Sequence record: MH051918
Length of the DNA stretch: 50,048 bases
Reading direction: 5' to 3' (one strand)
DNA from: Escherichia phage vB_EcoS_IME347
In this document: piece by piece, positions 26,102 through 31,096 of the stretch
Layout: every line of letters starts with the position of its first letter
Position numbering within the stretch: the stretch's first letter is position 1
The notes under the pieces: generated by a model
The model's database searches: none
What the model saw: only the letters and a program-made list of their open reading frames with translations
Told to the model about the DNA's origin: nothing
Made by a program: the position numbers and the translations under genes

Positions 26102-29100
26102 ATGAATCAAAAAGTGATAAGCGGCTCAAAGGGTGGCGGCGGAAGTCCGCACAAGCCCGTTGAAATGGAAGATAACCTGATCTCCATCAACAAAATCAGA
26201 GTTCTACTCGCTGTGTCTGACGGTGAAGTAGATCCCGATTTCGATATGTCCATGTTGTACTTGGACAACGTTCCAGTGATGAACAAAGACGGAACTTACA
26301 ACTACGAAGGAATCAAGGCGGAGTTCCGCCCCGGCACTCAGACGCAGGATTACATTCAGGGGTTCACCGACAGCGCAAGCGAAGTCACTATGAACCGGGT
26401 AATCAAAACTGACACCCCGTTTAGCATCAACGTTACGAACCGGAACCTTTCGGCAATCCGAATCAAGATGTTCATGGCTCGCGGCGTAAAGGTTGAGAGC
26501 AACGGCGACAAGAACGGCGTTCGCGTTGAATACAAGGTTGAAATGGCTGTGGATGGTGGAGCTTTCGAACCTGCACTCACTGACGTGATTGACGGAAAAA
26601 CAATGTCAGGATATGACCGTAGCCGCCGCATTAATCTGCCCTCGTTCAACTCTCAGGTGATCTTGCGAGTGTCTCGCGTAACGCCGGACTCCGACGATTC
26701 CAACCTGATTGACGAGATCCAGTTGCGCAGCTATGCGGAGGTTATTGACGCGAAGTTTCGTTATCCGCTGACCGGGCTACTGTTCGTTGAGTTCGATTCG
26801 CAGATGTTCCCGAACCAGATCCCGAACATTTCAATCAAAAAGAAATGGAAGGTTGTCAATGTACCGACGAACTACAACCCGGTAACTCGTGATTACTCTG
26901 GCACTTGGGACGGAACGTTTAAAAAGGCGTGGACGAACAACCCGGCTTGGGTTCTGTACGACATTATCACCAACCAACGTTACGGGCTTGACCAACGCGA
27001 GCTTGGGATTGATGTTGATAAGTGGTCGCTTTACGACGCCGGGCGCTATTGTGATCAGATGGTTCCAGACGGAAAGGGCGGAACCGAGCCGCGATATCTA
27101 TGCGACGTGGTTATTCAATCGCAGGTTGAGGCGTTTAAACTGGTGCGCGATATCTGCTCAATCTTCCGGGGTATGAGCTTTTGGAACGGCGAAAGCCTGT
27201 CTATTGTGATCGACAAGCCGCGCGAGCCGTCTTACATCTTCACGAACGAGAACGTTGTGAACGGTAATTTCTCATACGCTTTCGCGAGTGAGAAAAGCAT
27301 GTATACGGTGTGCAATGTCCAGTTTGATGATGAAGAGAACCTTTATCAACAGGACGTGGAGCCTGTTTTCGATACTGATGCGGCTCGCAGATTCGGCAAC
27401 AACCCGACGAGCATTACAGCGATCGGATGTACCCGGCGCAGTGAGGCTAATCGCCGGGGGCGCTGGATTCTCAGAACCAATTTACGAAGCACTACGATCA
27501 GTTTTGCTACCGGATTGGAAGGAATGATTCCGCAGATTGGCGATGTTATCGCGGTGGCGGATAACTCATTCTCAAGCAACCTCACGCTTAACCTTTCTGG
27601 TCGCGTGATGGAAGTTTCGGGATTGCAGGTTTTCACCGCCTTTAAGGTTGACGCTCGCGCAGGTGATTTTATTGTCGTAAATAAGCCGGATGGGAAGCCC
27701 GAGAAGAGGACTATCGCATCGGTATCGCCTGACGGCAAGACTATACAGTTAAACGTCGCATTCAGCTTCTCTGTGGCTCCTAACACTATCTTTGCAATTG
27801 ACCGCACGGACGTAGCGTTACAGCAATTCGTTGTTACGGATATTTCCAAGGGCGACAATGAAGAAGAGTTTGTGTTTAGCATTACTGCGGTTGAGTATGA
27901 CCCGAACAAGTACGACGCGATCGACTACGGAGTAAACGTTGACGAAAGGCCTACAAGCATTGTCGATCCTGACAAGCTTCCTCAGCCGCAAAACGTGCAG
28001 ATTGAGTCCTTCTCTCGTGTGGTTCAGGGCGTAAGCGTTGAAACGATGGTTATCAGTTGGGATAAGGTTCAGTATGCGGCTCAGTACGAAATCCAATGGC
28101 GAAAGGGTAATGGCAACTGGATTAACACGACACCAACGGCGAACAATGAAACGTTTATCGAAGGCATTTACGCCGGGCAATACTTCGTTCGGGTTCGCGC
28201 TGTATCGTCGGCGGGCAATGCTTCAATGTGGTCTGAAGTTGTCAGCGCATCACTGACGGGTAAAGTCGGAGAGCCGGGTTCGCCAATTAACTTCACGGCG
28301 TCCGATGATGTTGTTTTTGGCATTCGCCTGAAATGGGGCATGCCGGAAGGGACTGAAGATACCGCATATATTGAGGTTCAGCAGTCACCAAACAACAGCA
28401 TTGAAAATGCATCACTGCTAACGCTCGTTCCATACCCTCAACATGAGTATTTCCATACTCCACTTGAGGCCGGGAAGATGATCTTCTACCGCATTCGTGC
28501 GATAGACAGGATCGGAAATGTGTCCGGGTGGACTGACCTGATTCCGGGGATTGCCTCAACTGACGTTGAGAGCATTATCGGGGAAATCAAGGTTGATATC
28601 GAAAACTCCGAGGGGTTCAAGTGGTTGCAGGAAAATGCGGTAGATGCAAACTCGAAGATTCACGGGGCGGCTGAAGCGATAATCGAAACCACGCTGGCTA
28701 ACGATCGTGATGTTCGTATTCAGCGCAAGCGGAACGGGAAGTTCACTGCTCAGTTTAAGCAGTCATTCCAGTTAATCGCAGATGAAACGCAAGCAAGAGT
28801 TGAGCAGTATCAGGAGTTACAGGCCGACTTTGACGGAAAGATAACCGCAACTTCAACTCAGCTTAACCAGGCGATCGCTAACGAAAGGGAGGCGAGAACA
28901 ACTCAGGTAAACCAGATTAGCGCAACGTTCGGCGGAAACCTTGACGATCTTAGCGATAGGGTTGATGGTGATATCGGGGATCTTAATGGAAGGGTTGATG
29001 GTGAGGTTCGGGCTCGTCAAGCTGCGATCTCAAACGTAAACCAAGCCATTGCGAACGAAACCGAGGCGCGAGTTCAGGCTATCAATGATTTGAAAGCGCA

Positions 29101-29683
29101 GGTTGGCAGCGACATTCAAGGCCAGCTAACGCAGTTGAATCAGGCGATCGCCAATGAGACTTCGGCGCGAGTTTCGGCTGATACGGCTCTTAGCACAAGG
29201 ATCGGGAATAACACTGCGGCTCTGAACCAGAAACTTGATTCATGGGCTAACGCAACATCGGTTGGCGCTATGTACGGCGTCAAGCTTGGGTTGAGGTATA
29301 ACGGGGTTGACTACTCCGCAGGGTTGGCAATGTCTCTGGTTGGATCTGGTAATACTGTCAAGTCTCAGCTTTTGCTACAGGCCGACAGGTTCGCAGTTTT
29401 CAACGGGGCAAACAACCAATACCGATATCCGTTCGTTGTTGAGGGCGGGCAGGTTATACTCAGCAGCACGGTTATTAAGGACGGTTTCATTACGAACGCG
29501 ATGATCGGGAACGAGATCAAGTCAAACAACTATGTTGCAGGTCAGACAGGATGGAGGATTGATAAGAACGGTAACTTTGAGATTAACGGCAAGACGGGAA
29601 CCGGAAGGTTGACCATCAACAATAACACTGTGAGCGTTTACGACGCGAACAACCGCCTACGCGTTCGCATGGGCTTGTGGTAA
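26102..29683 (+). CDS. central tail fiber / host specificity protein (lambda J-like)
   Basis: 1193-aa ORF at the end of the lambda-like tail cluster; C-terminal region contains degenerate QLNQAIANE-type repeats. Confidence 0.85.
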   Translation: MNQKVISGSKGGGGSPHKPVEMEDNLISINKIRVLLAVSDGEVDPDFDMSMLYLDNVPVMNKDGTYNYEGIKAEFRPGTQTQDYIQGFTDSASEVTMNRVIKTDTPFSINVTNRNLSAIRIKMFMARGVKVESNGDKNGVRVEYKVEMAVDGGAFEPALTDVIDGKTMSGYDRSRRINLPSFNSQVILRVSRVTPDSDDSNLIDEIQLRSYAEVIDAKFRYPLTGLLFVEFDSQMFPNQIPNISIKKKWKVVNVPTNYNPVTRDYSGTWDGTFKKAWTNNPAWVLYDIITNQRYGLDQRELGIDVDKWSLYDAGRYCDQMVPDGKGGTEPRYLCDVVIQSQVEAFKLVRDICSIFRGMSFWNGESLSIVIDKPREPSYIFTNENVVNGNFSYAFASEKSMYTVCNVQFDDEENLYQQDVEPVFDTDAARRFGNNPTSITAIGCTRRSEANRRGRWILRTNLRSTTISFATGLEGMIPQIGDVIAVADNSFSSNLTLNLSGRVMEVSGLQVFTAFKVDARAGDFIVVNKPDGKPEKRTIASVSPDGKTIQLNVAFSFSVAPNTIFAIDRTDVALQQFVVTDISKGDNEEEFVFSITAVEYDPNKYDAIDYGVNVDERPTSIVDPDKLPQPQNVQIESFSRVVQGVSVETMVISWDKVQYAAQYEIQWRKGNGNWINTTPTANNETFIEGIYAGQYFVRVRAVSSAGNASMWSEVVSASLTGKVGEPGSPINFTASDDVVFGIRLKWGMPEGTEDTAYIEVQQSPNNSIENASLLTLVPYPQHEYFHTPLEAGKMIFYRIRAIDRIGNVSGWTDLIPGIASTDVESIIGEIKVDIENSEGFKWLQENAVDANSKIHGAAEAIIETTLANDRDVRIQRKRNGKFTAQFKQSFQLIADETQARVEQYQELQADFDGKITATSTQLNQAIANEREARTTQVNQISATFGGNLDDLSDRVDGDIGDLNGRVDGEVRARQAAISNVNQAIANETEARVQAINDLKAQVGSDIQGQLTQLNQAIANETSARVSADTALSTRIGNNTAALNQKLDSWANATSVGAMYGVKLGLRYNGVDYSAGLAMSLVGSGNTVKSQLLLQADRFAVFNGANNQYRYPFVVEGGQVILSSTVIKDGFITNAMIGNEIKSNNYVAGQTGWRIDKNGNFEINGKTGTGRLTINNNTVSVYDANNRLRVRMGLW

Positions 29684-29684
29684 T

Positions 29685-29716
29685 AAAAAAGGCTCCTTAT
29701 TGGAGCCTTTTCTTTT
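29685..29716. terminator. bidirectional intrinsic terminator
   Basis: aaaaaaggctcc-ttat-tggagcctttt hairpin flanked by A and T runs, between convergent genes. Confidence 0.65.
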
Positions 29717-30053
29717 ACATGATGGTTACTTTGTTGTCGTCTTTCATTTTTCGTGAAGTCTGTGTAGCGATCAGGTCGTCATATCCCATCTTTCCTTTGT
29801 TCCAGTGAAAGACGGTATTGTAGACGCCGGAATCTTTATAGCACATTACATGTACGTTCTTACGCAGGTGCTTGTCGAAAATCACGTTGTCTGATTGGTT
29901 GATCGTCACGGTCTTTTCGGCGCAGTTGATTGTAGCATGAGTCGAACCGTTCAGAGAGAGGCGGCTGGCGTCAACCGGATATCCGATATTTGCATTGAAT
30001 GCCATAGCGTTAAAAGAAGCTGTGAACATGATAGCGGCGATGATTTTTTTCAT
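29715..30053 (-). CDS. secreted hypothetical protein (112 aa) with cleavable signal peptide
   Basis: N-terminus MKKIIAAIMFTASFNAMA-F is typical of a Sec signal peptide with an AXA site and no lipobox Cys; has its own upstream motif module at 30076-30129. Confidence 0.5.
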   Translation of the reverse strand: MKKIIAAIMFTASFNAMAFNANIGYPVDASRLSLNGSTHATINCAEKTVTINQSDNVIFDKHLRKNVHVMCYKDSGVYNTVFHWNKGKMGYDDLIATQTSRKMKDDNKVTIM

Positions 30054-30109
30054 TGGTGTTTCCTCGTTTCGTTTTGATGAATGCAGTATAGCCCCGTTTC
30101 CGGGGCTTG

Positions 30110-30129
30110 TTTTAGCAATTCGTGCTGTC
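30110..30129 (-). promoter_or_regulatory. intergenic motif copy (reverse orientation) with hairpin and TATACT
   Basis: Reverse complement reads TGACAGCACGAATTGCTAAAA and includes the stop codon of the 216-aa gene, followed on the - strand by hairpin ccccggaaacgggg and TATACT. Confidence 0.5.
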
Positions 30130-30778
30130 AGTTGTAACCTTGGAATCTGGCATAAGGAATCTTGAGCCGTCCACGGCCTGAGAATATCTCAGCGAAAGAC
30201 TTCTGGTTATTCCTTATCCATGTTGTTTGCAACTGCGATCCCGTCCATCTCATTAGGTTCCCCGAGTAGCCAACGGCGAAACCGTCGTCACTCCACTGCC
30301 CGAAGCAGTTATTCCATAGGAAAAACGGGTTGAATCCCGGCGTCACCGACACGACCCGACCCTCAAGGTTTACGTTTCCGGCAACGTCAAGGAATCCCAT
30401 AATTCGAGGCATTGTCGCAGCGCTCGCGGCAGACCAGACAAGATTCCCGCTGGCGTCGAAAACGTCCAAGTAGCCCGACACGTTGGGCTTGTTTCTTGAC
30501 GTCCTAATTACCCTGATCGAGTTCGGAACGAACAGGTTCGCGCCGGGATATCCCCAACCGTTATTGGCGGTGAACTGAATCCAGTATAGATAACCATCCT
30601 CCCGCTTGAAATTGTAGTTCAGATAAGCGAGGGAGCTTACATTTCCAAATGGAGTTGACACGTTGTAATCGCCTGTATTCAACATTCCGGGCGTAACGAT
30701 GGAATCGAAAATCGTGTGTTTCTGATCGGAGTTGATCAGGACTACCCCGGCGTCATTCAAAACCTCAAAACCTGACAT
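30128..30778 (-). CDS. hypothetical beta-rich protein (216 aa), paralog of the 30788..31096 product
   Basis: Shares DASGNLV and N-terminal G-hydrophobic-x-hydrophobic-(W/L)-(N)DA motifs with the adjacent ORF; Gly/Asn/Ser/Val-rich. Confidence 0.5.
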   Translation of the reverse strand: MSGFEVLNDAGVVLINSDQKHTIFDSIVTPGMLNTGDYNVSTPFGNVSSLAYLNYNFKREDGYLYWIQFTANNGWGYPGANLFVPNSIRVIRTSRNKPNVSGYLDVFDASGNLVWSAASAATMPRIMGFLDVAGNVNLEGRVVSVTPGFNPFFLWNNCFGQWSDDGFAVGYSGNLMRWTGSQLQTTWIRNNQKSFAEIFSGRGRLKIPYARFQGYN

Positions 30779-30787
30779 AATTCCCCC

Positions 30788-31096
30788 TTAGTTGAACATG
30801 TAGACTTCTACGTATAGCGTGAGATCCACCGATGGATTTCTCCCCGGAACGTAGATGATATCAATGCCTCCCGATCTGCACACGGGGGCGTAATCGGTAA
30901 CGTATGTCGCTCCGAGGTTCGCACCCATCACGGAGGCGAACGAATTCGAATCCGTCACTCCCGCGATATTTAGCTGAACCCTGTCAACCGATCGCGGAAA
31001 GCTGACATTATACCGCCCGACAAATCGGGTGCTGTAATCACCGAGATCGACAACGAGATTTCCCGAAGCGTCCCAACATTGCAAGCCAGCCGCCAT
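30788..31096 (-). CDS. hypothetical protein (102 aa), paralog of the N-terminal part of the 216-aa protein
   Basis: MAAGLQCWDASGNLVVDLGDY motif; first gene leftward of control region B. Confidence 0.5.
   Translation of the reverse strand: MAAGLQCWDASGNLVVDLGDYSTRFVGRYNVSFPRSVDRVQLNIAGVTDSNSFASVMGANLGATYVTDYAPVCRSGGIDIIYVPGRNPSVDLTLYVEVYMFN

Follow-up and report, generated by a model that had tools for sequence, protein, structure and literature searches.

A 33-Residue Repeat in the Shaft of the J-like Central Tail Fibre of Escherichia Phage vB_EcoS_IME347

Introduction

The gene for the J-like central tail fibre of Escherichia phage vB_EcoS_IME347 (sequence record MH051918) carries short, degenerate repeats in its distal part, which raises the question of what such repeats do in a protein of this kind. 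An earlier note, made from the letters of the window alone (the window being the whole stretch of DNA analysed, 50,048 nucleotides (nt) long), located three copies of about 40 nt near 28857-29180, in a region that it called receptor-proximal, and offered two explanations: the repeats could drive recombinational variation of receptor-binding regions, or they could form a repetitive coiled structural element. The evidence summarized below argues for the latter: the repeats are probably modules of a trimeric, hendecad-like coiled-coil shaft of a T1-like central tail fibre.

The Repeat and Its Unit

The repeat search returned a single family of three direct 43-nt copies (28855-28897, 29029-29071 and 29128-29170), the second and third being 67% and 72% identical to the first. 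These copies encode TQLNQAIANEREAR, SNVNQAIANETEAR and TQLNQAIANETSAR, i.e., the QLNQAIANE(R/T)EAR-like peptide which the earlier note had read in each of them; its coordinates proved to be off by a few bases only. The similarity reaches beyond the 14-residue core on both flanks, copies 2 and 3 are spaced by exactly 99 nt, and 33 is the top self-similarity lag in the region. The real repeat unit is 33 codons (99 nt) long, and the 43-nt copies are its conserved cores. The gene harbors four such units, one of them degenerate (Table 1): this Unit 0, located upstream of unit 1 and containing FQLIADETQARV, was not listed in the earlier note. Copies 1 and 2 are spaced by 174 nt because an insert of 25 codons sits between them. 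Among the 14-residue self-matches, the best reaches 56 BLOSUM62 units, compared with 28.3 +/- 3.2 (maximum 39) in 300 residue shuffles, and the best 43-nt identity amounts to 31/43, compared with 25.5 +/- 1.0 (maximum 28) in 200 codon shuffles.

At the nucleotide level, the units have drifted far apart. Their pairwise identity over the full 99 nt is 44-55%, the longest exact run common to units of this gene is 11 nt, and where the amino acid is shared (11-15 positions), the codon is the same in just 3-7 cases. Tandem Repeats Finder reported no array in the gene, since the copies are too diverged for it. Such codon divergence, together with the low nucleotide identity, points to old copies kept by selection at the protein level.

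The protein that bears the units shows the layout of a central tail fibre. Pfam recognizes the domains FNIII-A_GpJ (residues 92-217), Phage-tail_3 (341-488), fn3 (642-715) and Phage_Tail_Tip (1041-1175), the first two and the last exceeding the curated cut-offs. The family found in PHROGs is PHROG 31 (“central tail fiber J”), T1 gp33 (PDB 9l9p) can be aligned with the protein over its full length, F2 pyocin PA0641 and lambda J are strong matches, and the gene order around it is syntenic with that in T1, SRT8 and others. Proteins of the lambda J/T1 gp33 type are recognized by a length of ~1100-1200 amino acids (aa), by being encoded after the tail assembly genes, and by the combination of hub, FNIII and C-terminal Phage_Tail_Tip (PF09327/DUF1983) domains in one chain; this combination was found here. 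The repeat units follow the last FNIII-like domain and precede the Phage_Tail_Tip/distal beta domain; therefore, the segment that they occupy is the fibre shaft and not a receptor-binding domain. The distal beta part yielded Foldseek matches in the PDB to the tail tip fibre of phage SU10 and to the lambda gpJ central fibre; among the matches listed, which were confined to this distal region, there was no F-pyocin entry.

Several other assignments of the repeat-bearing segment were rejected. The Pfam matches to SF-assemblin, Apolipoprotein and AAA_13 reflect generic coiled-coil composition; SF-assemblin was narrowly over its own cut-off (33.8 vs. 30.6 bits), and the other matches of this sort were well under theirs. 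An overlapping gene is unlikely as the cause of the repeat as well: just two short minus-strand open reading frames (ORFs) overlap the region, at 28853-29020 (55 aa) and 29140-29283 (47 aa), both with TTG starts and most likely mechanical.

The Shaft as a Probable Coiled Coil

Hydrophobicity along residues 860-1052 is strongly periodic, with a peak at 3.64 residues (power 98 vs. 33 +/- 12 in shuffled sequences, none of 500 reaching it); the power at this period spans 98-109, compared with only ~1-2 at 3.50 residues, and the peaks of the relatives fall at 3.57-3.69 residues. The residues on the face of the hydrophobic moment follow each other with a 3-4-4 spacing (I976, V979, I983, T987, R990, I994, K998, continuing with V1001, I1005, L1009, L1012, I1016, T1020, R1023 and onward); thus, there are nine core positions per 33 residues, i.e., three hendecads. 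The AlphaFold2 monomer model built with a 74-sequence alignment displays helices at residues 837-1000 and 1005-1034, separated by a break at VGSD, and strands from 1039; the block-mean predicted local distance difference test score (pLDDT) is 92-96 over residues 920-969, which cover unit 1 and most of the insert. The region was helical in the single-sequence run, too. A long predicted helix with a sustained periodicity of 3.5-3.67 residues, the hallmark of a coiled-coil shaft, is accordingly present in this segment.

The C-terminal 333 residues match F2 pyocin PA0641 (25vf_A) with E=6.9e-16, residues 972-1170 aligning to 1000-1197, so the last ~400 residues are homologous to the central fibre of F-type pyocins; residues 907-1084 of PA0641 form a solved trimeric coiled-coil shaft bearing side fibres (10.64898/2026.02.24.707460). 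Since this homologous shaft and T1 gp33 are both trimeric, we infer a trimer for the phage studied here. Hence, the repetitive coiled element proposed in the earlier note is supported by the 3.64-residue period, the 3-4-4 core, the predicted helix, the pyocin homology and the retention of the units in relatives; both the structural periodicity and the conservation that it had suggested looking for are there.

On this model, the four 33-residue modules and the 25-residue insert would build most of a trimeric alpha-helical shaft (~residues 840-1035), each module corresponding to three hendecads, nine helical turns and roughly 5 nm of its length. The Ile11 and Arg18 of the unit lie on the face of the hydrophobic moment with Glu14 adjoining, and Glu14 and Arg18 make up an i/i+4 pair.

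Table 1. Location of the central tail fibre gene, its repeat units and associated features in the window
Feature	Coordinates	Strand	Residues (aa)	Basis or remark
J-like central tail fibre (tip attachment) gene	26102..29683	+		1193-aa ORF; Pfam, PHROG 31, full-length T1 gp33 match
Unit 0, degenerate: TAQFKQSFQLIADETQARVEQYQELQADFDGKI	28745..28843	+	882-914	BLOSUM self-match, lag 91, to unit 2; in register
Unit 1: TATSTQLNQAIANEREARTTQVNQISATFGGNL	28844..28942	+	915-947	Holds copy 1 of the earlier note
Acidic 25-aa insert: DDLSDRVDGDIGDLNGRVDGEVRAR	28943..29017	+	948-972	Between units 1 and 2
Unit 2: QAAISNVNQAIANETEARVQAINDLKAQVGSDI	29018..29116	+	973-1005	Holds copy 2 of the earlier note; aligns to F2 pyocin PA0641 1000-1034
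Unit 3: QGQLTQLNQAIANETSARVSADTALSTRIGNNT	29117..29215	+	1006-1038	Holds copy 3 of the earlier note; predicted helix ends at ~aa 1034
Distal beta-structured tip, Phage_Tail_Tip/DUF1983	29216..29680	+	1039-1193	Pfam PF09327 E=1.4e-43; AlphaFold2 strands from aa 1039
Downstream genes	29715-31096	minus		102 aa (phrog_7961), 216 aa (phrog_4524), 112 aa (phrog_25729)

A Possible Second Fold

The pyocin homology brings in another property of such shafts: recent work on pyocins suggests that they may refold and thereby aid the piercing of the host cell. In the F7 pyocin, the shaft is converted into a beta-prism after contact with the cell, and this conversion opens the tail tip; each strand of the prism carries the motif SxSxxMxxLxS, and replacement of Ala by Gln at the prism-corner positions abolishes killing with assembly unaffected (He et al., PMC12874032). 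Of 24 phage central fibres, the same authors predicted 21 to switch; the T1-like phages TLS and Shfl1 are among their aligned beta-prism predictions.

The phage protein carries the signature of these strands. Counted in both orientations, SxSxxMxxLxS has 12 full matches at residues 860-1060, compared with 2.57 +/- 1.60 in composition-preserving shuffles (none of 2000 reaching 12). The orientation of the motif alternates between reverse and forward at the centres 979, 994, 1012, 1027, 1044 and 1054. The F7 anchors V1010 and A1017 at S (corner) positions, E1039 at an M position and the exposed A1011 are consistent with strand centres at 1007, 1022 and 1039, which align exactly to 979, 994 and 1012 of the phage, so the alternation of SxSxxMxxLxS and SxLxxMxxSxS strands follows the F7 register. 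A secondary periodicity of ~2.06-2.1 residues accompanies the helical one; it was reached by 6 of 500 shuffles for residues 973-1052, by 11 for 882-1052 and by 29 for 882-947.

In 103 distinct units collected from relatives, small residues dominate all six predicted S (corner) positions, and the “L” positions 4 and 25 are mostly hydrophobic, of Ile/Leu type. Ile at position 11, Glu at 14 and Arg at 18, which belong to the coiled-coil reading, are highly conserved as well; the pooled units were gathered with a hidden Markov model (HMM) of the four units of this very gene, a source of bias at E14, R18 and similar positions. The ends of the units hold Gly motifs (DFDGK, FGGNL, VGSDI and IGNNT).

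With this strand register, each 33-residue unit maps to one beta-hairpin, in which a reverse strand (SxLxxMxxSxS) and a forward strand (SxSxxMxxLxS) are joined by a short N-E-T-E turn and followed by a Gly-containing turn. By homology with the central fibres of F-type pyocins, such hairpins would form part of a triangular beta-prism. The QAIANE(T)EAR core would then interleave two sets of residues, one serving the coiled coil (I, E, R) and one, made up of small residues, serving the prism corners (A, A, A, V), and this dual-fold demand may explain why QAIANExEAR is the best-conserved part of the unit. Whether the shaft of this phage also switches to a pyocin-type prism is, judging from homology and motif register, close to an even bet, with the balance slightly on the negative side. 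A more elaborate proposal treats the 33-residue repeat as the quantum of a bistable shaft (three hendecads and one hairpin per unit), with the number of units tuning both the length and the stored conformational energy and with the insert as a possible lineage-specific kink or docking site; it is tentative, and we hold it to be somewhat less probable than its negation.

Certain observations weigh against the coiled-coil model or its extension to a second fold. The F2 pyocin paper describes heptads with a stutter (10.64898/2026.02.24.707460), as opposed to the 3.6-3.7-residue periodicity found here. Residues 821-1172 of T1 gp33 were too flexible to resolve, so the region is devoid of an experimental structure from a T1-like phage; modelled with AlphaFold3 (AF3), it became an alpha/beta-helical extension of ~370 Å (PMC11945409). 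The residue classes of the strand motif are our interpretation of the percentages given by He et al. Both AlphaFold2 monomer runs, whether on the 74-sequence alignment or on the protein sequence by itself, returned helix only and no beta-prism, the published protocol relying on trimer predictions. The fold switch as such rests on two pyocin preprints of 2026, and lambda and T5 lack it according to the authors themselves (PMC12874032).

The Acidic Insert

The insert separating units 1 and 2 consists of two tandem copies of 33 nt that agree at 25/33 positions when the register is started at nt 28946; it arose via tandem duplication of a single hendecad-length segment. It is missing from all 73 relatives in the 74-sequence alignment. 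The insert maintains the core spacing (L950, V954, I958, L961, V965, V969, R972) and is predicted to be helical with a block-mean pLDDT of 93-96. Eight of its 25 residues are Asp or Glu, a composition similar to that of the acidic gap in the F7 pyocin shaft where the side fibres dock. The idea of an analogous docking site (cf. F7 D950-D961) is weakened by T1, whose side-fibre anchor is ~70% identical to that of the present phage and whose shaft is without the insert.

The lateral tail fibre gene of the phage (33915-35780, minus strand) encodes 621 aa. Its anchor (aa 1-~115) is ~70% identical to T1 gp26, and the N-terminus resembles those of Klebsiella phage depolymerases (PDB 7vyv, 7lzj); the remainder has diverged, and the C-terminus is a Peptidase_S74 intramolecular chaperone domain.

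Relatives and the Number of Units

The HMM of the unit detected it in 53 of 244 related proteins, with 1 to at least 15 copies per protein: two in ACG-M12 and SF_KL25, three in SRT8, four each in T1, LF82-19 and aaroes, at least six in K50, and at least 15 in P0101, a 1922-aa metagenomic protein. The modal spacing of the units is 33 aa, and spacings of 32, 36, 40 and 44 aa also occur. In P0101, the units lie at residues ~1050-1770 and are spaced by 33, 36, 40 and more residues; so many units imply, judging by the sequence, a very long shaft of the central fibre.

The length differences in the 74-sequence alignment are in phase with the units, SRT8 being exactly 58 aa shorter here. In T1 gp33 (L001, 25043-28561), the adjacent units at residues 922-954 and 955-987 are identical at 98/99 nt, the mark of a recent tandem duplication; the duplicated unit may correspond to the 33-residue helical insertion of Shfl1 described in PMC12874032. 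Overall, the number of units evolves by in-phase duplication and deletion, altering the length of the shaft and not the receptor specificity.

The phage itself is T1-like (Drexlerviridae), nearest to SRT8, IME-JL8 and BrunoManser with ~78% nucleotide identity, and hence probably represents an undescribed species of the family. The IMG/VR contig IMGVR_UViG_2974601010_000001 is the entire window (1-50048). Aside from this sequence itself, a scan of IMG/VR for closer relatives found none above 56% aa identity, and the same was true of phage records and protein databases.

Alternative Explanations

That the resemblance of the units is a chance effect of low-complexity composition, devoid of biological meaning, is practically negligible as an explanation. 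A, Q, N, E and T are indeed abundant in the region, which draws spurious weak Pfam matches to unrelated coiled-coil families, but the shuffles stay far below the observed self-match (56 vs. at most 39 BLOSUM62 units; 31/43 vs. at most 28 identical nt), the spacing is exactly 33 aa, and the 33-residue unit recurs in 53/244 related proteins; this explanation was ruled out by the shuffles and the recurrence taken together. A more serious rival is a static coiled-coil spacer which sets the distance from the tail tip to the distal receptor-binding complex, perhaps anchors the side fibres and never refolds; the motif enrichment would then stem from Ala-rich composition and pyocin ancestry. It accounts well for the helix-only output of both AlphaFold2 runs and for lambda and T5, which use no such switch (PMC12874032); the shafts of the F2 and F7 pyocins do serve as docking platforms for side fibres, and the 3.64-residue period would suffice to explain the conservation of I, E, R and L. 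It fits less well with the small residues at the six predicted prism-corner positions, which would be solvent-exposed in a coiled coil according to the F7 structure (He et al.), with the motif enrichment that composition-preserving shuffles failed to reproduce (0/2000), with the Gly motif at each unit end, unusual for a stable coiled coil, and with the ~2-residue periodicity alongside the helical one (reached by 6-29 of 500 shuffles). The prediction of the switch in 21/24 phage central fibres, with TLS and Shfl1 among the aligned beta-prism predictions (PMC12874032), speaks against it as well. We regard the static spacer as an unlikely, albeit not negligible, alternative.

The other possibility suggested by the earlier note is that the repeats are a substrate of ongoing recombination or slippage which actively diversifies the length or the sequence of the distal fibre. 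The near-identical 99-nt tandem pair of T1 (98/99), the whole-unit in-phase indels of relatives (such as the 58 aa missing in SRT8), the copy number varying from 1 to at least 15 and the insert, itself a 33-nt tandem duplication, would all agree with such a process. They are outweighed by the state of the units in this gene: these are 44-55% identical, show few identical codons (3-7 of 11-15), as befits old copies under protein-level selection, and form no array detectable by Tandem Repeats Finder, while the longest exact run of 11 nt is too short for efficient recombination now, the current copies having diverged too far. Near-identical, recombinable nucleotide copies, which define a variable repeat array, are not seen here; T1 has them for one pair of units. 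Moreover, the region is the shaft and not the receptor-binding part, and polymorphism is not visible, the nearest relatives in IMG/VR, phage records and protein databases sharing only 56% aa identity. Hence, ongoing recombination is improbable, distinctly more so than the static spacer. Of the recombinational variation of receptor-binding regions envisaged in the earlier note, the gain and loss of units over evolutionary time stands; the location in the shaft, the 11-nt exact runs and a receptor likely read elsewhere argue against the rest.

The Probable Site of Receptor Choice

Recognition of the terminal receptor in Drexlerviridae is believed to be the task of small proteins that attach non-covalently to J and whose genes lie immediately downstream of it (PMC8594841). 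The label “receptor-proximal” given to the repeats is thus right in the spatial sense, but it does not denote a region that reads the receptor. In the present phage, the place downstream of J is taken by three small minus-strand genes (Table 1), none of which has a Pfam match. The 216-aa protein is 74% identical to its counterpart in the BASEL phage IsaakIselin (Bas10), whose terminal receptor is YncD, so the locus looks like a YncD-type receptor-binding locus, and the receptor choice of the phage probably lies in these three genes. The same arrangement is found in LF82-19, and T1, SRT8 and aaroes have a different, plus-strand module plus cor.

Implications

J-like fibres are already known to have a coiled-coil shaft, for which a possible fold switch has been described as well; the gene studied here is a further member of the group. 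The additions made here are modest and descriptive: the mapping of 33 residues onto three hendecads and one hairpin, the range of copy numbers and the unique insert originating from a hendecad duplication. Neither of the two preprints describes the shaft as an array of sequence repeats: the words “repeat”, “hendecad” and “heptad” are absent from He et al. (PMC12874032), and “repeat” occurs once in the F2 pyocin paper, for the heptad register (10.64898/2026.02.24.707460).

The annotation is corrected accordingly: the repeats are the shaft of the central fibre, and to label them a hypervariable receptor-binding region or a hot spot of recombination would be a mistake. If the pyocin switch does apply to T1-like phages, the gene would offer a clean modular system with four units and candidate corner alanines. 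Natural relatives with two to at least 15 units make the effect of shaft length and unit number on adsorption and DNA ejection testable in a non-contractile tail.

Comparison with Known Systems

The closest known system is T1 gp33 (PDB 9l9p), a full-length homologue (residues 1-1191 aligned to 1-1166) with the same order of domains and likewise with four 33-aa units, at residues 882-1012, with cores such as IREAIANETEAR. The N-terminal anchor of the T1 lateral fibre is ~70% identical to that of the present phage. T1 differs in the absence of the 25-aa insert, in the presence of two near-identical units (98/99 nt) and in its downstream receptor-binding module, which is of another type and orientation. 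The C-terminal 352 residues of T1 gp33 are unresolved, so the repeats there are without an experimental structure (PMC11945409).

The central fibre of F-type pyocins (F2 PA0641, 25vf; F7 CFP) shows homology over the first 820 and the last 200 aa, and both systems feature a long helical shaft directly upstream of the beta-prism seed. The hairpins recur every 32 aa in the pyocin vs. every 33 aa in the phage, and the papers on the pyocins report a stuttered heptad pattern in place of the hendecad-like periodicity of the phage. The F-type pyocin is a bacteriocin and not a phage; its shaft units were not detected as repeats by the unit HMM, and the identity of the shaft segments is low by eye. In the pyocin, an acidic gap of the shaft serves as the docking site of the side fibres.

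Lambda gpJ (PDB 8iyk, 8xcj/8xck) shares homology in the N-terminal hub and the FNIII domains (E=1.6e-115), and its distal beta-prism region is homologous both by sequence (to residues 1036-1134 of the phage protein) and by fold. No lambda chain aligned to residues 882-1035, so lambda appears to be without a long repeat-built shaft. According to He et al. (PMC12874032), it also lacks an extensive fold switch, and gpJ binds LamB directly via its own C-terminal domain.

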